Positions 18,055 through 58,339 of a DNA stretch of 64,000 nucleotides are shown here, piece by piece. Made by a program: the position numbers and the translations under genes. The DNA lies in the NCBI RefSeq assembly GCF_030144855.1, contig NC_082725.1, forward strand, positions 15,376,001-15,440,000, in the 5' to 3' direction. Source of the stretch: Hypanus sabinus (lineage: Eukaryota). Numbering within the stretch: the stretch's first letter is position 1; each line of letters begins with the position of its first letter. The notes under the pieces were generated by a model. That model was not told the origin of the DNA. It made no database searches and saw only the letters and a list, made by a program, of their open reading frames with translations.

Positions 18055-18975
18055 GCACAAGAGAATCTGCAGATGCTGGAAATCCATAGTAACACACACA
18101 AAATGCTGGAGGAACTCTGCAGGTCGGGCAGCATCTATGGAGGGGAATGGAGTGCTGAGACCCTTCATTGGTACCTCCAATATAATTCAGCAAGCTAAGC
18201 AATCTCCATTGATCTCCCTCCTGGCATTTATCCTTGCAAGTGTTACACCTTCCCCTACAACACCTCCATCATTACCATTCAGGGCCCCAAACAGTCCTTC
18301 CAGGTGAGGTGACACTTCACCTGTGAGTCTGTTGGAGTCATCCACTTTATCCAGTGCTCCCAGTGTGGCCCCTTGTATATTGGTGAGACCCAATGTAGGT
18401 TGGGACACCGCTTCACTGATCTCCTACCCCCTGCCCAGTCTGCCAGAAAAAGTAGGATCTCCCATTTTAACTCCTCTTCCCATTCCCATTCCAACATATC
18501 AGTCCATGGCCTCCTCTACTGTTGCCATGAGGCCACACTCAGGTTGGAGGAGCAACACCTTATGTTTTGTCTGGGTAGCTTCCAACCTGATAGCATGAAC
18601 ATCGATTTCTTGAACTGGGTAATGGCCCCTCCCCCTTCATCATTCCCCATCCCCTCTTCCCTGTCTCACCTGATCTCCTTGCTTGCCCATCACCTCCCCC
18701 TTTTCTTTCTCCCATGGCCTTCTACTAGATTCCCCTTCTCACAGGACTTTCACCAGTAAACTTCCCAGCTCTTTACTTCAACCCTCCCCCCTTCCAGTTT
18801 CACTATCACCTTGTGTCCCTCCCTCCCCTCCCCTCCCCCCCCCACTTCCTAACTCTGACTCCACATCTTTTATTCTCCAGTTCTCCTGAAGGGTCTCGGC
18901 CCGAAACATCGACTGTACTCTTTTCCATTGGTGCTGCCTGTCTTGCTGAGATCTTCCAGCATTTTGTGCGTGTTG
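18055..18975 (+). mobile_element. 5'-truncated Penelope-like element (GIY-YIG region and terminal repeat) preceded by an inverted terminal copy
   Basis: YIGETQCRLGHRF…HFNSSSHS…LEEQHL (GIY-YIG); 18055-18170 is the reverse complement of the terminus at 18880-18975. Confidence 0.85.
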
Positions 18976-20759
18976 TCTGCACAGTTTTTTTCTGAGTGCT
19001 AACGGTGGGGTGGATTTCTGACCCTTGATTCAGCTCCAGTCTTTGGAAAGGGAAGGATAAATCCACTTTACTGAAGAGCTGTTTGATTGTCAATATAGCA
19101 ATGCTTACAGTTTACAGTTACTGTTCTATAGATTTGCTAAGTATGTCCACAGAAAAAGAATCTCAGGGTTGTATGCAGTAACATGCATGTACTCTGATAA
19201 TAGATTTTACCTTTTGAACTTCAGCTTTGATACACCGCCTTACAGTTGCCACAAATCCTCCCTGTTCTGCCTCTGGTTCAGTATAATCATTCTATTTTGT
19301 ATATGCATAATACAATGTCATGCCTCTTCAGCCAGTCTGTTTCCTTCTCATTAGATTTCCTTATCAGTGGTTTCAGAGATCTGTGACCCCTGCAAGCAGA
19401 GCCCCAGCATAATCTTGTGCCTTGACTGTTTTGCCTACAAAGGCCAAGACCATAAGACCATAAGAGACCATAAGTCAAGTTTACTGTCAGATTGAAGTGT
19501 CATTGGGGTGTGGCTGGGTGGTCAAAATATGCAATCAGAGAGACACACAGCAGAGGGAAAAACCCTTTCACCCATCAAGTCTATTCTGACCATCAATCTC
19601 CCACATACTAGAACACAGAGCAATGGCCTGTCTCACAGCTTGATGCTCATGGGGGGGTGGGGGGGATTAGGAAGGACATTACTGCTGTGCTTCCTATTCA
19701 AAGTAAAGGGATTTCATCTACTTTTTCTTCATTTTTTCCTAGCCTGAATGAACATGGGTTTGTGAGTTTTGGACAAGCTTTTAAACATTACTAAATTTGG
19801 AAAAGGGAGAGAATTCTGCATGGCTTTTTAACAACATTGGCAATCATGCCAAGCTTAAACAGTCTGTTGGGTACAGTATAGGACTCAAAGATGCTGGTGG
19901 TGTTGTCAATGACCTCAAAAGCACAATAAATTACTCAAGGGTCTGCTTGTTTTGTGGGCTGTTGGTTGGGGTGTGTGAGTGTAATCCTCCTTACCAATGC
20001 GTAGCTTCCCAATGGAAGTGTGAACTCACAGCTTGGCATTCATCTTCCAGAATCTTCTAAGATTTAAAGAGTGGGAATGGAATTTACAGGGATGGTTCAT
20101 GGGTTCTATTTAATACCAGAGAATGTATACAGTATACAACCTGAAATTCTTACTCTCCGCAGCCATCCACAAAACAAAGTAAAAGCCCAAAGTGTGAATG
20201 ACAAGGAAATGTTAGAACCTGAAAGCCCGTCCCACTCCCATGCACGAGCAACAGTCCCTCACCACCCACCCTGTGAGGAATAACAAACCCTCAGAGACCA
20301 TGATCCATCAGAAACTACTGTTCACCCCTACAGTTTGATGTGCCACAGTCTCGCTCTCTCCCTAACAAGGGACAGAGGGATATCGCTTCTGCCACAGCAA
20401 GAGGGAGACCAACAGCTCTCTGTTTCGATGTTACAGTTTGCATCATTGCTTATTTTGATAGCCGTGTACCCTGCTCTCTCGACATTCTGATCTCAGCCGG
20501 CGACACCGGCAGGGCATCGGTTCTTCCACAGGGCCGCACCCTAAAGGTGTCCCCGTCTTCCAGGCCGCTTGGTGAACAAAGAGCAGGGACCCAGCACCAT
20601 GAAGAACCACACTTTGAGAGCAGCCATAGAGCGCCGACTCCAATGGGACCCCAGACACCTTGAAAAAGGAAAGAAGAGACATTAGAGGGAAGAACTCAAA
20701 CTGTTTTGCAGATGGACTGGGGCAAGTCACCCTCGTGCCATTTCTAGCAACTCCCACAT

Positions 20760-24601: not shown

Positions 24602-26521
24602 CCCTTACATACTGTTCTGGTCAAATTTGACCTGTTTTGATACTTGACAGCAGTAAAAACACCCTAAGTGCCAACACGAGGAAAGCTGCAGATGCTGGAA
24701 ATTCAAACAACAACACACACAAAATGCTGGTGGAACGCAGCAGGCCAGGCAGCATCTGTAGGGAGAAGCATTGTCAACGTTTCGGGCCGAGACCCTTCGT
24801 TAGGACTAACTGAAAGGAAAGATAGCAAGAGGTTTGAAAGTAGGAGGGTGAGGGGAAAATGCGAAATGATAGGAGACCAGAGGGGGTGGGGTGAAGCTGA
24901 GAGCCAGAAAGGTGATTGGCAAAAGGGATACAGAGCTGGAGAAGGGAAAGGTTCATGGGACGGGAGGCCTAGGGAGAAAGAAAGAGGGAGGGGAGTACCT
25001 GAGGGAGATAGAGAACAGGCAGAGTGATGGGAAGAGAGAGAGAACAAAAGGAGGAGGGGGAAAAATAACTAAATATATCAGGGATGAGGTAAGAAGGGGA
25101 GGAGGGGCATTAACAGAAGTTAGAGAAGTCAATGTTCATGCCATCAGGTTGGAGGCTACCCAGCCAGTATATAAGGTGTTGTTCTTCCAACCTGAGTGTG
25201 GCTTCATCTTGACACTAGAGGAGGCCATGGATAGACATATCAGAATGGGAATGGGACATGGAATTAAAATGTGTGGCCACCGGGAGATCCTGTTTTCTCT
25301 AACAGACAGAGAGTAGGTGTTCAGTGAAACGGTCTCCCTGTCTGTGTCGGGTCTCACCAAAATATAAAAGGCCACACTGGGAGCACCGGATGCAGTATAC
25401 CACTCCAGCCGACTCACAGGTGAAGTGTTGCCTCACCTGGAAGGACTGTCTGGGGCCCTGAATGGTGGTGAGGGAGGAAGTGTAAGGGCAGGTGTAGCAC
25501 TTGTTCCGCTTGCAAGGATAAGTGCCAGGAGGGAGATCGGTGGGAATGGATGGGGGAGGGGAAACGAATGGACAAGGGAGTCGCGTAGAGAGCAATCCCT
25601 ATGGAAAGCAGAAAGGGGGGGGAGGGAAAGATGTATTTGGTACTGGGATCCCGTTGGAGGTGGCGGAAGTTACGGAGAATTGTACGTTGGACTCGGACGC
25701 TGGTGGGGTGGTAGGTGAGGACAAGGGGAACCCTATCTCGAATGAGGTGGTGGGTGGATGAGGTGAGGGTTGATGTGCGGGAAATGGGAGAGATGCATTT
25801 GAAAGCAGAGTTGATAGTGGAGGAAGGGAAGCCCCTTTGTTTAAAAAAGGAAGACATCTCCCTTGTCCTAGAATGAAAAACCTCATCCTGAGAGCAGATG
25901 TGGCAGAGGCAGAGGAATTGCAAGAAGGGGATAGCATTTTCGCAAGAGACAGGGTGGGAAGAGTAATAGTCCGGGTAGCTGTGAGAGTCTGTAGGCTTAT
26001 AGTAGATATCAGTAGATAAGCCATATCCAGAGATGGAGACAGAAAGATCAAGAAAGGGGAGGGAGGTGTCATAAAATGGACCAGGTAAATTTGAGGACAG
26101 GGTGAAAGTTGGAGGCAAAGTTTATGAAGTCAACGAGCTCAGCATGCGTGCGGGAGGCAGTGCCAATGCAGTCGTCGATGTAGCGAAGGGAAATGCCATG
26201 TTTTTTAGCTGAAATTTGATGACTTTTCCTAAAGTGACCCAAAATGCGCAGAAATGAAAATATTAAAAAATTTTATACTTTTGTACAAGTGCTACAATTT
26301 TTTGTAGATTGAGGCTGTTCCGGGTCAAATTTGACCCGTATCTATTGAAATGGATTTTAGATCTCTGAAACATTAATTAAGGATTAATCACCCATTTATT
26401 AATGTCAGATAGGCTATATATACATTCTGAATAGATCTGTGGTTCAAAATTTGGTATAGACACCTGTTATGAGGGAATTGTTACGCAGGGTCGAAATTGA
26501 CCGGGACCATACTGTGAAGGC
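24602..26521. mobile_element. piggyBac-like non-autonomous DNA transposon interrupted by a PLE
   Basis: TTAA|CCCTTACATACTGTTCTGGTCAAATTTGACC at left; degenerate inverted match GGTCGAAATTGACCGGGACCATACTGTGAAGG at ~26489-26520; internal copy of the palindrome at ~26315-26340; right-hand TTAA not preserved. Confidence 0.55.
24670..26190 (-). mobile_element. Penelope-like element, 5'-truncated (RT from YIDD, GIY-YIG endonuclease, terminal repeat)
   Basis: RYIDDCIG at ~26160-26185; LPFLDLSV…YYKPTDSHSY..Y.SSHP; CKRNKCYTC…VVYCIRCSQCGLLYFGET; frameshifted. Confidence 0.92.
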
Positions 26522-49909: not shown

Positions 49910-51495
49910 CCTAACCACTCCACCCCCCCACCATCACCCTCCTCTGCCTAGCGAAACTCATCCTCACTCTCAATAATTTCTCCTTTGGCTCCTCCCACTT
50001 CTTTCAAACAACAGGGGTAGCCATGGGCACTCCCATGGGTCACAGCTATGCCTAGCTGTGTGTCGGCTACGTGGAGCAGTCTATGTTCCCAGCCTACACT
50101 GGTGACTGTCCTGCACTTTTCCTTTGCAACATCGCCGACTGCATTGGTGCTGCTTCCTGCACTCGCACTGATCTCGTTGACTCATCAACTTTGCCTCCAA
50201 CTTCCACCCTCCCTCAAATTCACCCAGTTCATTTCTGACAGCTCCCTTCCCTTTCTTGATCTCACTGTCTCTACCTCCAGAGACAGTTTACTCACCGATG
50301 TCTATTACAAGCCCACGGACTCTCACAGCTACCTGGACTACACCTCATCCGACCCTACCACTTGTAAAAATGCCATCCCCTTTCCTCAGTTCCTCTGTCT
50401 CCACCGCATCTGCTTTCAGGATGAAGCTTTTCAGTCTAGAATGAAGGAGATGTCCTCCTTTTTCAAAGAAAAGGGTTTCCCTTCCTCCACCATCAACGCT
50501 GCCCTTAACCACATCTCTTCCATTTCATGCACTTCTGCTCTTAGTCCATCCTCCCACCACTCTACCAGGGTTAGGGTTCCTCTTGTCCTCACCTATCAAC
50601 CCACCAGCCTCCGCATCCAGCATATAATTCTCTGAAACTTCCATCTCCAACTGGATCCCACCACTAAGCACATCTTTCACTCCCCCCCTCCACTTTCTGC
50701 TTTCCATAGGGATATCTCCCTATGTGACTCCCTTGTCTATTAGTCCTTCCTGGCCCTTATCTTTGCAGTGCTACGCCTGCCCCTACACCTCCTCCCTCAC
50801 TACTATCCAGGGCCCAAAAACAGTCCTTCCAGGTGAGGCGACACTTCACCTGTGAGTCTGTTGGGGTCATTTGCTGTGTTTGGTGCTCCTGGTGTGGCCT
50901 CCTGTATGTCATTGAGACCTGACATAGAGTGGCAGATCGCTTCACCGAGCATCTATGCTCCGTTCTCCAGAACGTTGGGATCTCCCAGTGGCCGTCCATT
51001 TTAATTCCAGTTCCCATTCCCATTCTGATATGTCCATCCATGGCCTCCTCCACTGTCGGAATAAAGCCACACTTTGGTTGGAGGAACAACACTTTATATT
51101 CCATTTGAGTAGCCTCCAACCTGATGGCATGGACATTGATTTCTCAAACCTCCGGTAATGTCCCCCACCCCCCACTTCTCCATTTCCTATCCCCTTTTCC
51201 CTCTCTCACCTCATCTCCTTGCCTGCATATTGCCTCCCTCCAGTGCTCCTTCCTCCTTTTTCTTTCTTCCATGTCTCTTTCACCAATCAACTTCCCATCT
51301 CTTTACTTCATCCCTCCACCTCCAGGTTTCACCTATCAGCTGGTGTTTCTCTCTCCCTCCCCCATCTTTTAAATCTACTCCTCAGCTTTTTCACTCTAGT
51401 CCTGCTGAAGGGTTTCGGCCTGAAATGTCCACTGTACTCTTTTCCATAGATGTGCCCTGTCCTGCTGAGTTCCTCCAGCATTTGGAGTGTGTTGC
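49910..51495 (+). mobile_element. Penelope-like element, 5'-truncated (RT, GIY-YIG, terminal repeat)
   Basis: FQTTGVAMGTPMG; LPFLDLTV…YYKPTDSHSYLDYTSS; HFNSSSHS…LEEQHFIF; degenerate hammerhead at ~51399-51432. Confidence 0.9.
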
Positions 51496-52049
51496 TTATA
51501 AGTCAGAGCCCAAGTTTAAACCCAGCCATTGGAGCTGTGGGATTTAACATAGCTTAATGTTTTAGAACTTTGAAAAAAGAGTATTTGCTAAAAATAGCTA
51601 CAAAACTACCAGACCGTTGTAAAACACTGTTTCACTAATGTCTTCAGGGTAGAAAATCTTCTTTGTCACCACCCCACCATGAAGAATATCTTCAAAAGGT
51701 GATGCTTCAAAAGGCATCAAAACAACAAATCTCATGGCATGTGCCAGTGAGAATAAATCTGATTCTGATCTCATTCTGGTCATTAGCTAGAGTGGCCAAA
51801 ATGACTCCAGAACCACTCACAATGTAATTGCCCCTTGACTACCTTCTGGCCCGATGAAATGGCCGAGCCCGTCACTCAGTCTATAGACAACTCGGGATGG
51901 AGGCAAACTCTCAGCTGCAGTGATCTCATGCCAGCTCTCCCACAAATATAAAACATAGACAACACCACTCAATCCGGGGGAGAAATTCCGACTCTGTTTC
52001 TCTCCCCACTTCTGCCACTTCACCTCGTGGAGCCACACAGAAATGGGTT

Positions 52050-52817
52050 CTCTGGCCCATCACATCAATGCTGATCTGTCTGCCCAGTTACAGGATTCCC
52101 ATTTTTCATGTATTAATAACTTTCCTTTTTAGGCCTGGCATGTTCTCTCTAAATCTTCTTAAACATAGTAATTGCATGTGATTTCATGACTCCTCTGGCA
52201 GCATGCTCTAGGTATCAGCAACTGTCTATGTGAAAAAGACTCAGACTCCCTTTAAATCTCCTACCACTCACATTAAACCTGTGCCCTCTTGTTTTTTTTA
52301 TACCTGTACAATGAAATATGCTCCTGACTATCTTTCCTTTCAATTCCTTTCTTAAGCTAATAAACTTTATCAGATCAGCCGACTGCCTCCTTCACTCCAG
52401 GGAAATTAAGTCCAACCTATCCAATCTCTCCTTATAACTGAAGTCATCCAATCCAGACAACATCATGGATAATCTCCTCTGCACTCTCTCTAGTATAGCC
52501 ACATCCTTCCAATCACAAACAAGAGAAAGTCTGCGAATGCTGGAAATCTGAACAATACACATAAAATGCTAGAGGAACTCAGCAACTATGGAAAAAGGTA
52601 CAGACGTCCTTCCATTGGTGGGCCTGGCAAATGGTTCCAGTCAGGACCATAAAACATGCAGCAGGAGCAAAATTAGGGCAGTCAGCGCATCAACTCTGCT
52701 CTGCCATTTAGTCATGGCTGATTCATGTCCCTTTCAACTCCATTCTCCTGCCTTCTCGTAACCTTTGCCTTCAGCCCTTACTATTCAAGAACTTATCAGT
52801 TGCTGCTTTGAATGTAC
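52050..52817 (-). mobile_element. Decayed CR1 3' fragments with a PLE terminal fragment (~52512-52605)
   Basis: Similarity to other CR1 and PLE ends in the window. Confidence 0.6.
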
Positions 52818-53039
52818 TGTTATGTTTTGTAATTTCAAAACATTAAACTAATTCAAAGGAAGACATGGAAGTCCAGAAATGTGTGTCTAACTTTTTGAGT
52901 TTACTTTAATAGAGGTGGGCATGTATCACGTATTTATACATGTATTCCATAATGAATCATTTAAACAAACAAGAATTCCCAATCAAAGAACATATTTACA
53001 AAGTTACTCAAATGTTACTAAAACATTAAATGCACAACA
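52818..53039 (-). repeat. 3' LTR of copy A
   Basis: Minus strand TGTTGTGCA…CATAACA directly after the PPT; homologous to 58081-58316. Confidence 0.88.
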
Positions 53040-53334
53040 CTCCTCCCTGCTTAGCTATAAACTCCAACTCAATAGAGAATGCATCTCAACTATATGTACT
53101 GACATTCACTGCAGAATAAATTTTAAATTGTCCCATTCAGGCTTAAAGAATTAATCACTGTGGAGTATTTCTTAATCTTCTGGGATAATGTCGTTCCTGA
53201 CAAGGGGGATCACTTTGCTTGGCAGCTAAGACTTGTGATTGTGAAACAATCTCACATTCGGAGGCCTCCTCCGTGATCATTGTAGGAGTTGTCTCTGAGA
53301 CTGCAGGAAGTGATTCTGACAGCTCTGGGTATCT

Positions 53335-53930
53335 TTCTTCTCCTTCATTTTTCTTCTTCTAGCTTGTGCATCTTGATCATGGGAAGCAGTATTTATTTTA
53401 CTGCAGTATTCTCTTATTAAAGTTTCTAAAACTAAAGTTACTAAAACTTCAAATGCTCCCTTTATGATCAGTTCTCTCCTCTTGGCTTCCTCATCCACAA
53501 AATCATCTGACAAATCCTTTGTTTTCATATCTCAATTTACTCCTTTCTCTTTGGTCTTCCATTCATCCAGCTGGGCTTTGGTCTTTGCATCTACTTTTAT
53601 GAGCAGCTTTTTTTTCTTTCACTTGAAGTTCTTGCAATAACCTTTATTCATGTAGAGTAGATTTTGGCTCTTTATACTTACTAAAGCCATTTCCTTGCAA
53701 CTTTTCTGAAACTCCTTGAACTCCCTTCCAGCTTAAAACCAAGTCACTTTCACAAGGAAATGCCTGATTCACTCATCAGAAGTCTTCTCACATATGCTGC
53801 CTATGAAAACTGTTGAGGTTGGACCACTAATTTCCTCTGAGCAATGGTCCTTCCATTGATTCTTTAAGCTTTTTAACAAGAGACATGGAGATTGGCACTA
53901 ACACCTGGTTGCCCATTGCTGGGGAGCAAT
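53335..53930 (-). pseudogene. RBM25: Processed RBM25 fragment (RRM and downstream region) inside LTR copy A, disabled
   Basis: QVLVPISMSLV…KDH…GPTSTVFIGSICEKTSD…LVLSWK.VQG…KYKEPKSTL…KKLLIKVDAKTKAQLDEWK…DEEAKRRELIIKGAFEVL…LIREY; several stops and frameshifts. Confidence 0.88.
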
Positions 53931-55429
53931 TCATGGTGTACAGCATGGAGACAGTTGTGGTATCATTCAATATCTTTCTTAATTAGCTTTCAGTTGGCTT
54001 CATTGCAGTGGATGTGGCACGCAAATAGTGGTTGTAGTTGTTTCAACCAGTCCCATCCCCACAATGCTGATCCTCCTGTTTTTACCACATTCAAGTCCAA
54101 CATCGTTCCCACAGATGTTACATTTTATCCTGTATAAGTTCTTAGTTGGATATCTGCAGGCTTCAATTTGGCATAATTTAAATGCCATTCAAACTTATTT
54201 TGTTGAATGACTGAAACAGCTGAACCTGTGTCCAATTCCATTTTAATTAATTTTCCATTCAGTTCTGGTGTAAGCTATATTGCCCGTCTATTGTTAGCTT
54301 CCACATTGTGAATCTCAGGGGTACCTAGTCCTGCGTCATTCTCATCATTATCAGATTTTTCATCAACAGCATGCAGTTTAGTGCACTTTTTGAAACTACA
54401 ACTTAACTTTTTAGTTTTGCTCTTCCTTGTGCAGTCCATTTATTTTCGTCTGCCCAACATGACCTTTGTATGTACTTTACTTCCTTGCATTTTCTGCAAG
54501 TTTCACCGTTATATCTGCATTTGTTTGTTATATTTGAGCCATTGCCAAAATGGAAACACAATTTGGTTGGCCTCACTGATTTCCATTTAGAAGTTGCAAT
54601 TTTGTTTGTGCTCACTTTCATTCCTGAGTGCAACTCAGTTACATCTCTGCCTGCTGTTTCCATTGATACAGCAATTTCAACTGCTCTTTTCAATGTAAGT
54701 TGTGTTTTAGTTAGGAGCTGTTTTTGATTGCTTTCTTTTAAGATTCCACAAACTAAACAACCTCTCAGTGCATCATTAAGTCCATCCTTGAACTTACAAT
54801 GCTCAGACAATGTCTTCAATTCAGCCATGTACGCAGAAATGGTCTCCCCTTCCGTTTAAATCCAGTTATGAAGCCTAAAATATTCTGCAATCAGCAATGA
54901 TTTTGTTTTTAAATGTTTCCTGCATTCCTTTCACAATATCAACAAAGTCACATTTCCGCTAGTTTGGTTGGAGTAGTCAAATTTCGAAGCAAACTGTATG
55001 CTTTTAAATCCAATGCGCTCAGCAAAATTTGTACTCTTTTCTAATTGCCTATTTAATTTGCTTCAAAGTACTGTACAATTTTCTCAGTATATAAAATCCA
55101 GTTATTTGATGTGTAATCAATCATGTCTAACTTTCTGATGTATCCAGCCATTTCTGTTCTTTCTTTTATGATACTTCTCTCCCAGTACTTACCGTTTACG
55201 AACCATGAATCGTTCTGTCTACTGACTGTTAATTTGACAGTCCCTGCATGTGCTTGCACTTCTGTTTATTTTACCTCCTGTTCCTCATTGTGGTTTTTTT
55301 TAAATTCAAGTGCCTTGATTCATTTTCAACATGTTGGTAGCCATCTCAGGTTTATTTTTAAAATACTTCATCACAACTGTTACGTTCTGAAACTAAGTGA
55401 AAGGAAGACAAGGGAGTCTGAACCATAGG

Positions 55430-56300
55430 CAGAGGCAGAGATGTGATGGTGCTAAATTGCGACTCCTTTGTGTTCGTCTATGAAAACAGTTTAATTCCTA
55501 CCTTTCATGTTGCTCCTTTTCCTTCAGGGTCTGTTTCCTTTTCTGTTGAAGATCCTGACCTGGAGTTTGACCCTGAGATCCTGACACTCTAACTTTGATT
55601 CTTATTAGTGGTGGGAGCTGCTCTTGGCGCTCATGGCTGGCCGATTTCAATATCCCAAGGATGCGTACTAGAACATGAGTGCACCTTCAGGGTTCCAAGG
55701 TTTTGTAGCCCTGTGGGCCGGGCTGATTCTAATCAAGTGCCACCGACTGTAATGTTGCAGGAGAGACTGGAATATCGGGAACAGCGGATCAGCTGTCAGA
55801 GGCTGTGAACTCAGCGACTTGCGCGCTCTTTTTCTCTATCTCTCGTGGCTACGTGAGAGATTGTTGCTGATTCTCGGGTCACAGAACTCAGAAGAAAAAC
55901 GGCAGACTTTTAAGCCCATAAACCAACTAGTTGTTTTATTATGTCTCTCTTCTCGCTATGAAAGGGACACTGCTTTTTCCCTTTATTAAGGAAAGAGAGA
56001 ATCTGTTTTTGTTGCACTGCAGATCATGGTCTTTTTTGGAATCCTTGCTATTGCATGCTCGATGGGTGGAGGGTGCTGATGGTTTTTTGCAGAAGTGGGT
56101 GGGGATGGGGTGGGTCGAAGCTTTGCTGCTGCTTGTGTGTGGGAGGGAAGAGTAGGGGGACTTTGGGGTTCTACGTTTTAACTGTCATTCATTCTCTGGG
56201 CCATTCTTCTGCCTTTTTGGATGTCTGTAAAGGGAAAGAATTTCAGGGTATATATTGTATTCATTTCTCTAATATTAAATGGAACTATTGAACTACTGAA
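55430..56300 (+). mobile_element. Unclassified, probably non-autonomous LINE-derived repeat
   Basis: Interrupts the LTR; ends in ATTAAATGGAACTATTGAACTACTGAA short tandem tail; no recognisable coding motif. Confidence 0.45.
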
Positions 56301-56309
56301 TTTGAGTGT

Positions 56310-57020
56310 AAATTCATATTTACTTCAAGTGAACCTTTCCACCAGACCATTTAAAGCTGGTGGCATAGTACAGATGTATAATATCATATTCCATCCACTT
56401 GCAGGAATGACTGAAACTGCTCCCCCACAAACTGTGGTCCATTGTCACTCACTAAGTGTTTTGAACCACCAGTCCTTGTCAATTCAATACAGTCTTTTCA
56501 ATACATCAGCAGTGTGCAAGGCTGCAGTGGAGGCTATTGGCAACACTTCAAGCTACTTTGTAGCTGCATCCACAACTATCAAGGAGTTTATGCCCATGAA
56601 TGGTTTGGCAAAATCCACAAGAATCCTCTGCCAGGGCAAAGCAGGCCTTTCCCAGGGATGGAGAGGTGCCGCTCTTTGCAACTTCTGGATGTGTTGCCAT
56701 ACCAAACAATGCTCGATCTGTTTATCAATCCCAGGCCATCAGACAAAGCTGTGAGCCAATGCTTTCATTATAACCATGCCTGAATAATCAGCATTTCGCT
56801 CCTCCAACACTTTAGCTTTCAGTTTTGATAGTACAACAAAATCCCCACATAAACCAACCTCTGTCAAGGGCAAGTCCATACTGGCTCTGGTAAAAATGGT
56901 GGAACTGGAATATCTGTAGCACATTCCAGCCATTATGGGTGGCCATGTAGACCTGAGATAGTGTGGCATCTTTTCTGATTTCTCTTTGAATCATCTCTCC
57001 CATAATAAGGAGACTTTCAA
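56310..57020 (-). mobile_element. Gypsy pol fragment (post-RNaseH linker, zinc-binding region and integrase core), decayed
   Basis: IQREIRKDATLSQV; SFV*WPG; PWQRILVDFAKPFMGINSLIVVDA; HLVSDNGPQFV. Confidence 0.88.
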
Positions 57021-57122
57021 TTTAATTGTCGAGTTAAAAAAAAAGGACAGTAAATGGAAGAATTCACAATACATAAATAGTGAGTACTGGGTGATAACAA
57101 TCATTTTTTAAAAAGAGCAGAA

Positions 57123-57740
57123 ATGGCTGGCCATATCAGAAAGCATATTGGACCAAGGAAGGACCTTGCTTCTCAGATGAATTGTGAAAGAGGTCAAAGC
57201 AGAGGTTTGACTATAACAGTTTTTGCAGGCAACATATCTGACAAAGCTTTTGGTATGTTGATTGGGATTTTACGTGCAAAATGTGGCTTGGTTTTAAGCT
57301 GGAAGAGAGTTCAAGGAGCTTCACGAAAATTGCAAGCATTTAGCTTTCGTGAGTATAAAGTATCAGAATCTGCTCTGCGTGCTTTAAGTTTATTGCATGA
57401 ACTTCAAGTTGGAGACAAAAAGCTGCTTGTAAAAGTAGATGCAAAGACCAAAGCCCAGCTGGAGGAGTGGAAGGTCAAAAAGAAAGAAGTTCAATGGAGC
57501 TATGAAAACAGAGGATTCATCAGATGTTTTGAATGAGGAATCCAAGAGGAGAGATCAGATATTAAAGTGAGCAATAGAAATATTAATAGAGAATACTCCT
57601 GCAAACTAAATGCACATTCCCAAGATCAAGATGCATAAACTAGAAATAAGTAAACAGAAGAGCAAGATAAAGAGAGAAAGAAGCAGAGACCAGGACAGAA
57701 GCAAGGATCAAAGTTGCCCTTCAGAGAGAAAAGCAGAAAG
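57123..57740 (+). pseudogene. RBM25: gag(7 aa)::RBM25 chimeric reading frame; RRM still open for 137 codons (57123-57536), frameshifted thereafter
   Basis: MAGHIRK|HIGPRKD…TVFAGNISDKA…AKCGLVLSWKRVQGASRKLQAF.F.EYK..ESALRAL.LLHELQVGDKKLLVKVDAKTKAQLEEWK; then NEESKRRDQILK*AIEILI.EYSCKLNA and RERSRDQDRSKDQS..REKSR, all matching vertebrate RBM25 as I recall it. Confidence 0.92.
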
Positions 57741-58080
57741 AAAGTAGAAGAAAGATGTCCAGAGCTGTCAGAACCACTTATTGCAGTGCCAGAATCAAAT
57801 CCTACAACCACCATGGACGAGGCCCCAAAACCTGAGATTGTTTCAGAGTCACAAGTTTCACCTGCCAAGTACAGTGATTCCCCTTGTCAGGAAGGATGTA
57901 ATCCAACAAGAGCAAGGAATCCTCCACAGCGATTAAATTTTTAGGCCTGAATGGAACAATTTAATATTTACTATACTGTGGATATCCATATTGTAGTTAC
58001 AGTATATTACATATTATACTGTTTATATAGTTGAGATACTTTCTTTATTGAGTTGGAGTTTATAACTAAGTCGGGAGTAG

Positions 58081-58316
58081 GGTTGTGCACTTAATAATTA
58101 AATAATCTTATAAATATATTGTTTGATTAAGCATTCACTGTTGTCAATATAATTCATTATGGTTATATGTAAAAATACATGAATTACAAATGTTATGATG
58201 CTATCATGTGATATGTGCATGCCTTTCTTAAAGTAAATACAAATTTAGAGTCACATATCAGACTCCCTTATCTTCCTTTGAATTCGTTTAATGTTTTGAA
58301 ATTACAAGAAATACCA
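58081..58316 (+). repeat. 3' LTR of copy B
   Basis: GGTTGTGCAC…GTTTAATGTTTTGAAATTACAAGAAATACCA, inverted homolog of 52818-53039. Confidence 0.85.
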
Positions 58317-58339
58317 GTGTTCAATCAATTTTGGCTTAC

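Follow-up and report, generated by a model that had tools for sequence, protein, structure and literature searches.

A piece of spliced RBM25 mRNA carried by a decayed Ty3/Gypsy-type retrotransposon family of Hypanus sabinus

A stretch of 64,000 nucleotides (nt) from Hypanus sabinus (contig NC_082725.1, positions 15,376,001 to 15,440,000), called the window below, contains two decayed Ty3/Gypsy-type elements in opposite orientation, A (52818-55421, minus strand) and B (57027-58316, plus strand), in which the reverse transcriptase (RT)-RNaseH-integrase core is replaced by spliced mRNA of the host gene RBM25. They belong to a family of about 1,000-3,000 copies in a genome of 4.04 Gb, and this family goes back to a single capture of spliced RBM25 mRNA. 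Very probably, the capture took place by a double template switch, the resulting chimera multiplied in a helper-dependent burst, and RBM25 was carried along as a passenger. Two separate Gypsy-type elements sharing an RBM25 piece, a pol tail, a polypurine tract (PPT) and a long terminal repeat (LTR) had been proposed in a first-pass annotation made from the sequence alone, and comparison of the window with itself bears this out. One inverted block, 53343-53814 versus 57215-57660, is 74% identical over 475 nt and represents the RBM25 piece, and a second one, 52816-53358 versus 57731-58318, is 70% identical over 604 nt and represents the pol tail, PPT and LTR.

Identity and capture of the RBM25 piece

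The best protein match of the frame in B is a shark RBM25-like protein with 81% identity; among the matches listed, the named entries are RBM25 and the others unnamed proteins with an RNA recognition motif (RRM). By tblastn, residues 28-207 of the shark protein align to B and residues 36-215 to A. Pfam searches with the open frames of the window gave no hit, and the identity was therefore taken from the homologue search and from better-preserved relatives. A search of PDB yielded generic RRM proteins only. The host gene itself is present at a single locus: the PWI end, whose exons are single-copy, matches one place on contig C16 by three exon hits, and the first coding exon, which was not captured, has one match in the genome.

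Host exons were mapped within 100 kb around this locus. The longest copies of the family cover positions 147-1218 of the host cDNA, corresponding to nine exons, and the eight introns in between, 25,579 nt in total, are all absent. A extends from the junction at position 147 to about 767, and B comprises 236-767 plus 1125-1218 from the RE/RD region, in agreement with the initial description of A as richer in 5' sequence and of B as retaining a piece of RE/RD. At four exon junctions tested, splicing was seen in all copies covering them (82 of 82, 90 of 90, 90 of 90, and 89 of 89). An exon of 48 nt is part of the captured mRNA and of the shark protein and is absent from the bony-vertebrate proteins compared. 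When it was used as a query together with its intron flanks, 527 candidates were obtained, and the 39 non-host hits that were scored match the exon part only. In the host this exon is in frame and has canonical splice sites (C16:113706119-113706166); it is probably an alternative exon.

The captured piece is a middle fragment containing the RRM and part of the RE/RD region, without PWI. To describe the elements as having transduced a splicing factor is therefore an overstatement, the more so as all copies seen are decayed. Likewise, the fragments in A and B are uninterrupted only in the sense of being intron-free; their frames are broken relative to the host cDNA by seven indels plus stop codons in A and three indels plus stop codons in B.

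The limits of the insert are defined by comparison with pol-bearing relatives, whose match to the gag-protease part of A breaks off at one point and is taken up again at the tail. On both sides, the insert is flanked by discontinuous parts of one LTR element, gag-protease-linker upstream and pol tail-PPT-LTR downstream. At the 5' junction, the word TGCCACA occurs both in the pol linker and at the end of host coding exon 2 (7 nt; 10 of 12 positions alike). Behind it, the carriers continue with the last 3 nt of coding exon 2 and then with the next exon; these three bases, ACT, are found in 51 of the 78 copies reaching the exon start. TGCCACA has the same reading frame in gag-protease and in RBM25, and three copies still read through into the RRM. 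As the start of most copies seems to coincide with an exon edge, a splice-donor model was considered for this junction and rejected, because the bases preceding the edge are the end of the upstream host exon. At the 3' junction, GAGAAGAAA (9 nt) is common to the host exon and the pol tail, in different frames. By eye, it was recognized in about 35 of 39 carrier rows and in 12 of 15 integrase-bearing rows, the others having no tail in the fetched stretch.

From 110 carriers, 18 duplicates more than 97% alike were dropped, leaving 92 unique carriers. The pol linker directly precedes the 48-nt exon in 73 of these and other sequence does so in five; the remaining 14 lack the 5' part by the threshold applied, seven of them still having the linker within 8 nt. 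Since both junctions are common across copies, there was one capture, as had been suggested from A and B. A poly(A) stretch or target-site duplication (TSD) belonging to the insert itself was looked for around it and not found; its ends are inside coding exons and abut pol sequence at the short words described. No fused gag-RBM25 protein was present among the matches listed for the junction-spanning frame (best coverage 79%).

The pol-bearing parent family is abundant and has the same gag, tail and LTR as the carriers. Its copies contain RVT_1, RT_RNaseH, Integrase_H2C2, and rve in that order (protease-RT-RNaseH-integrase), domains which the carriers lack. Together with LTRs ending in TG...CA, a primer-binding site (PBS), the PPT and a short TSD, this domain set and characteristic motifs assign the family putatively to the Ty3/Gypsy class. 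All parent copies seen are decayed. A search of the H. sabinus genome with RVT_1 returned long frames resembling RTs of long interspersed elements (LINEs) and was of no help toward an intact parent. At one further locus, L113, gag is joined almost directly to the tail without pol and without RBM25, representing another non-autonomous form.

Multiplication, decay and competing explanations

A search for other LTR-linked RBM25 copies, as the first-pass annotation had recommended, showed them to be abundant. In five hit lists with nine overlaps, 159 distinct RBM25-matching places on 29 contigs were found. The recapture estimate obtained from these lists is 1,195 copies (629-2,613) and is biased low, because all lists favour well-preserved copies. 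First-look candidates, which are not copy numbers, amounted to 2,879 for the RBM25 piece, 4,330 for integrase, 6,987 for gag, and 7,054 and 6,757 for the tail. In three other organisms, summed contig depth over the RBM25 bin of B relative to unique flank was approximately 1,950x, 2,050x, and 1,000x, a depth that does not translate into copy number. Contigs from one presumed RNA run overlap the element; contigs alone cannot show transcription.

Thirty-five carriers were extended, and both LTR ends were callable in 22. The 5-bp flanks match at four or five positions in 16 of these 22, compared to 17 of 462 mismatched pairs. Given these individual TSDs, each carrier is its own integrase-made insertion. 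The missing enzymes, the TSDs of single copies and the pol-bearing parents together point to a non-autonomous family amplified in trans, in line with the initial proposal. The share of carriers depended on the query: with the tail of B, 22 of 29 sequences were carriers, with the tail of a pol-bearing copy two of 29. A gag-anchored sample contained 13 carriers, 11 pol-bearing copies, and five with neither, seven of the 11 belonging to one tandem cluster. Since the share varies in this way, anchored samples give no unbiased proportion. The cluster, seven similar pol-bearing copies with the same match length at about 9.69-10.55 Mb of contig C1 (L200-L205, L210), is likely a large tandem or segmental array.

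Carriers are on average 86.1% identical to the host cDNA (standard deviation 1.7) and 81.4% identical to each other, with a maximum of 95.5% once duplicates are removed; their LTR pairs align at 67-81%. A and B are 77.8% identical in the RBM25 piece, below the pairwise mean, and are not sisters in the tree. They do not stem from a recent local duplication, as was already assumed. Over 195 codons, a copy contains on average 2.6 frameshifts and 1.8 stop codons, and three of the 92 copies contain none. Private changes per copy, 45.2 nonsynonymous versus 13.5 synonymous (N:S 3.3), are neutral, and the copies decay neutrally. With correction for 92 tests, none of the copies deviates from the N:S of the pool (best p 0.02), and the three copies with an open frame are also at pool level (p 0.25-0.40). 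An intact RBM25 frame under purifying selection, for which a test had been suggested, was thus found neither in A and B nor among these three. The highest synonymous share in the RBM25 piece was observed in L004 (30 nonsynonymous, 15 synonymous; p 0.02 before correction for 92 tests).

The tree of 59 tails is star-like, with long end branches (median 0.15) and short inner ones. No clear sign of selection on RBM25 is seen, and such a tree leaves almost no internal branch on which it could be detected. Variants present in 10-50% of the copies are mostly G>A or C>T (82 of 98) and unlinked, with an N:S of 23:6 at 15-50%. Among 4,565 pairs, none was linked after correction, and subfamily-diagnostic substitutions between 38 short and 31 longer copies were confined to one site. 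In the tail tree, the carriers cluster, with six label changes versus about 20 after shuffling. Most copies have a shortened RE/RD region; two modal short forms, accounting for 19 of 30 short copies, keep the original frame, and the longer forms show no preference (10, 9, and 7).

At 26 sites, most copies carry a base other than that of the host; 23 of these differences are synonymous and three nonsynonymous. At the latter three, the copies match the shark residue, so these changes arose in the host line and the protein remained unchanged from the capture to the radiation. The 23 shared synonymous differences exceed the 13.5 private ones per copy (standard deviation 3.8; Poisson p 0.012). Their direction, 12 versus seven, fits host-line mutation, and a burst soon after the capture is the simplest reading.

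The following course of events is proposed. Spliced RBM25 mRNA would have been co-packaged in a particle of an active Ty3/Gypsy element, and reverse transcriptase would have switched template twice at short shared words, thereby exchanging RT, RNaseH and integrase for about 1,070 nt of RBM25 coding sequence. Because the chimera presumably kept LTRs, PBS, PPT, gag and protease, it could have been transcribed, packaged and copied with enzymes of the parent family, supplied in trans. One old and fast burst of multiplication may have followed soon after the capture. Further microhomology deletions would have removed purine-rich RE/RD parts, LTR and tail may occasionally have been exchanged with the helper, and since the burst the copies have decayed neutrally, with RBM25 presumably as a passenger.

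Several observations weigh against this scheme. The carriers do not form one clade in the tail/LTR tree, where at least three changes are forced by well-supported branches and the bootstrap is not settled; occasional recombination with co-packaged helper RNA would fit this pattern. The surplus of synonymous differences shared by the copies is the single result that might reflect hidden purifying selection on the stem of the element. The reading frame is maintained across the 5' junction and in the two commonest short forms. In addition, no intact parent was found among 15 extended copies, and the carriers and relatives sampled are best-scoring hits, not a random selection.

Some of these points would also be expected if the capture occurred in the same way and a Gag-protease-RBM25 fusion was made and useful, the RRM serving as an extra RNA-binding module in packaging, export or protection from splicing. 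We regard this as unlikely. A useful fusion would explain why one chimera makes up a large share of the family, as indicated by the first-look candidates for RBM25 and integrase (2,879 and 4,330) versus those for gag and tail (6,987 and about 7,000). It would agree with the three copies reading through the in-frame junction into the RRM, with the frame-preserving deletions, with the lack of amino-acid changes on the stem between capture and radiation, with the excess of shared synonymous differences, and with the retention of the RRM in most tail-anchored carriers, in which RE/RD is usually lost. However, each of the frame coincidences would arise by chance about one time in three, and the direction of the synonymous differences fits host-line mutation. 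The intermediate-frequency variants, mostly G>A or C>T and unlinked, indicate no constraint by their N:S. Open-frame copies at pool-level N:S are a chance expectation at 4.4 breaks per copy among thousands, and the loss of RE/RD is explained by the RE/RD repeats themselves.

A spread that began with one or a few retropositions and continued mainly by duplication at the DNA level, whether segmental, tandem or as part of another mobile element, is very improbable. The few near-identical copies (up to 95.5% once duplicates are removed) and the tandem cluster on C1 are the kind of evidence it calls for, but the TSD test has already largely refuted it: the carriers have differing flanks and individual 5-bp TSDs at their LTR ends, are distributed over 29 contigs and diverged in a star-like manner. 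A processed RBM25 pseudogene made by a LINE inside an LTR element, later trimmed by deletion and amplified, is hardly credible in spite of the LINE-type RTs abundant in this genome, as there is neither poly(A) nor an mRNA 3' end, both ends are in coding exons at pol microhomologies, the pol core is missing exactly between them, and the PWI and first coding exons are single-copy.

Arrangement of the locus

On the minus strand, A, followed from its 3' end, begins with a 3' LTR of 222 nt (52818..53039, TGT...ACA), the same LTR being present at both ends of full-length relatives. The pol C-terminal tail, a 3' spacer and the PPT follow (53040..53345); the tail matches that of integrase-bearing relatives, and the PPT is directly visible. 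The captured mRNA (53346..53955) extends from the last bases of coding exon 2 through the 48-nt exon and the RRM exons to the exon after them; its 3' part is deleted, and indels and stop codons break the frame. Decayed gag, protease and pol linker, up to the 5' capture junction, occupy 53956..55345 and match gag-protease of pol-bearing relatives at 75%. The protease of A gave a weak RVP match (E 0.03), and a zinc knuckle was detected in one relative (E 0.011). A degenerate PBS and a 5' LTR remnant, the 3'-terminal 43 nt (55379-55421), are located at 55367..55421, the remnant matching LTR ends at 86-88%. A PBS-like motif is present at this position in five of the six relatives shown.

The 5' LTR of A is cut off by an unrelated dispersed repeat of about 870 nt on the plus strand (55425..56295; 5,500 first-look candidates). 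Its relatives match this span only, and the repeat gave no Pfam hit and contains no long frame. It is followed by an integrase fragment on the minus strand (56332..57023), which comes from a third element, a pol-bearing member of the parent family; rve was detected with E 0.0039 in the window and above the cut-off in relatives, which carry the same tail and LTR. The LTR remnant of A, the repeat and the integrase fragment were not listed in the first-pass annotation.

B, on the plus strand, starts with the gag leader and the first seven codons of gag (57027..57143), joined to RBM25 by a private deletion with 5-nt microhomology that is unique to B among the 92 carriers. Its 5' LTR and PBS are absent, and there is no protease. 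Placement of RBM25 between gag/protease and the pol tail therefore applies to A, not to B. The captured mRNA of B (57139..57753; host cDNA 236-767 and 1125-1218) includes the RRM and is broken downstream of it. The 3' capture junction, pol C-terminal tail and PPT (57745..58082) and a 3' LTR of 234 nt (58083..58316) complete the element; the LTRs of A and B are identical at 163 of 206 aligned positions. The private deletion places the gag start codon in frame with the RRM, creating an open frame of 137 codons (57123-57533). With 34 nonsynonymous and six synonymous changes over the compared region, this frame shows no sign of constraint.

Insertion of A and B as one inverted unit was ruled out, since the outer flanks form no direct repeat; three or more members of the family and one foreign repeat have accordingly piled up in this span. 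Both elements have lost their 5' LTR for the most part or completely, so that no TSD is callable for either. Contigs 92-98% identical bridge the capture junction of A, the edge between LTR remnant and inserted repeat, and the join between integrase fragment and B in three other organisms; the pile therefore predates the separation of these organisms. In 20 public runs (X1-X20) with ten organism labels, 7-22% of the exact 31-letter words are common with 52818-58316. At two other loci, L082 and L102, truncated family members lie head-to-head, resembling the arrangement of integrase fragment and B; the pair at L082 consists of a pol-bearing copy opposite an RBM25 carrier.

The rest of the window is densely filled with LINE-like and short interspersed element (SINE)-like fragments. 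Related repeat copies with RT-like remnant frames, which we take to be Penelope-like, are found at 50000-51500, 25100-26130, and 18240-18980; they gave no Pfam hit. No tRNA was detected in the window.

Relation to known systems and significance

Oncogene-transducing retroviruses are replication-defective and helper-dependent, with host cDNA replacing pol and often fused to gag; their host reading frame is selected, and they spread by infection with env. In contrast, the RBM25 carriers have no room for env and show no clear sign of selection, and at their 5' junction a microhomology leads into the end of an exon, with no splice from the element involved. The capture mechanism itself has been published. 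In LTR-mediated retrocopies of animals, partial spliced mRNA is located within a discontinuous LTR element with microsimilarity at both switch points (Tan et al. 2016, PMC5131818). The RBM25 family resembles these retrocopies in sense orientation, in-frame start and the ability to act as a non-autonomous element, and exhibits five of the six features considered for comparison (no introns, discontinuous flanks, microsimilarity, no poly(A) or TSD, and secondary retroposition). The published cases are young and few, whereas the RBM25 chimera is old, decayed and present in about 1,000-3,000 copies. RBM25 does not occur in the main text of PMC5131818. The novelty is the scale of multiplication, which is unusual for a captured gene piece.

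Other systems are comparable in part. Maize Bs1, also an LTR element with transduced host exons and switch points common to all copies, has one to five copies, three parental genes and a reported protein product (PMC5131818, PMC7264820), and the copy number stated for transduced reading frames of plant LTR elements is one or a few (PMC7264820). In Pxyfem of Plutella xylostella, part of the cDNA of a host regulator was similarly linked by template switching to LTR-element sequence and is multicopy; its 11 W-linked tandem copies make silencing RNAs against the parent gene (PMC9674220), whereas the RBM25 copies are dispersed and integrase-made. Bat Helitrons, which are DNA rolling-circle elements, provide another example of high-copy host gene pieces in a vertebrate, with 12,382 copies representing 54 genes and 16 conserved regions; those carrying retrogenes are much less numerous, with 118 copies for four retroposed mRNAs and 36 for one captured retrogene (PMC4224331). 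No publication on an RBM25-carrying LTR family was found in a literature search that left subscription journals and repeat databases aside, and an unnamed library entry may exist. RBM25 is also not mentioned in the main text of two elasmobranch genome preprints, whose supplements could hold repeat libraries.

It is rather unlikely that the in-frame fusion of Gag-protease and RBM25 RRM improved the handling of element RNA, or that the copies became a source of small RNAs acting on host RBM25 mRNA. In the first case, a vertebrate retrotransposon would have exploited a captured host RNA-binding domain, and this would have driven its rise to a large share of a family of several thousand copies. 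In the second, suggested by analogy to Pxyfem in the moth, thousands of copies would act on an essential host mRNA.

Independent of these possibilities, published LTR-mediated captures of host mRNA remain at one to few copies, and here one capture became a major repeat family of a vertebrate germ line. RBM25 annotation and read mapping in such genomes can be confounded by the copies. The family offers a natural experiment on how thousands of silenced copies of the mRNA of an essential splicing factor are tolerated by a genome, and it can serve, by its presence or absence, to date splits between related fishes. It is also a fossil record of an old RBM25 transcript, with the 48-nt exon and three residues that have since changed in the host.

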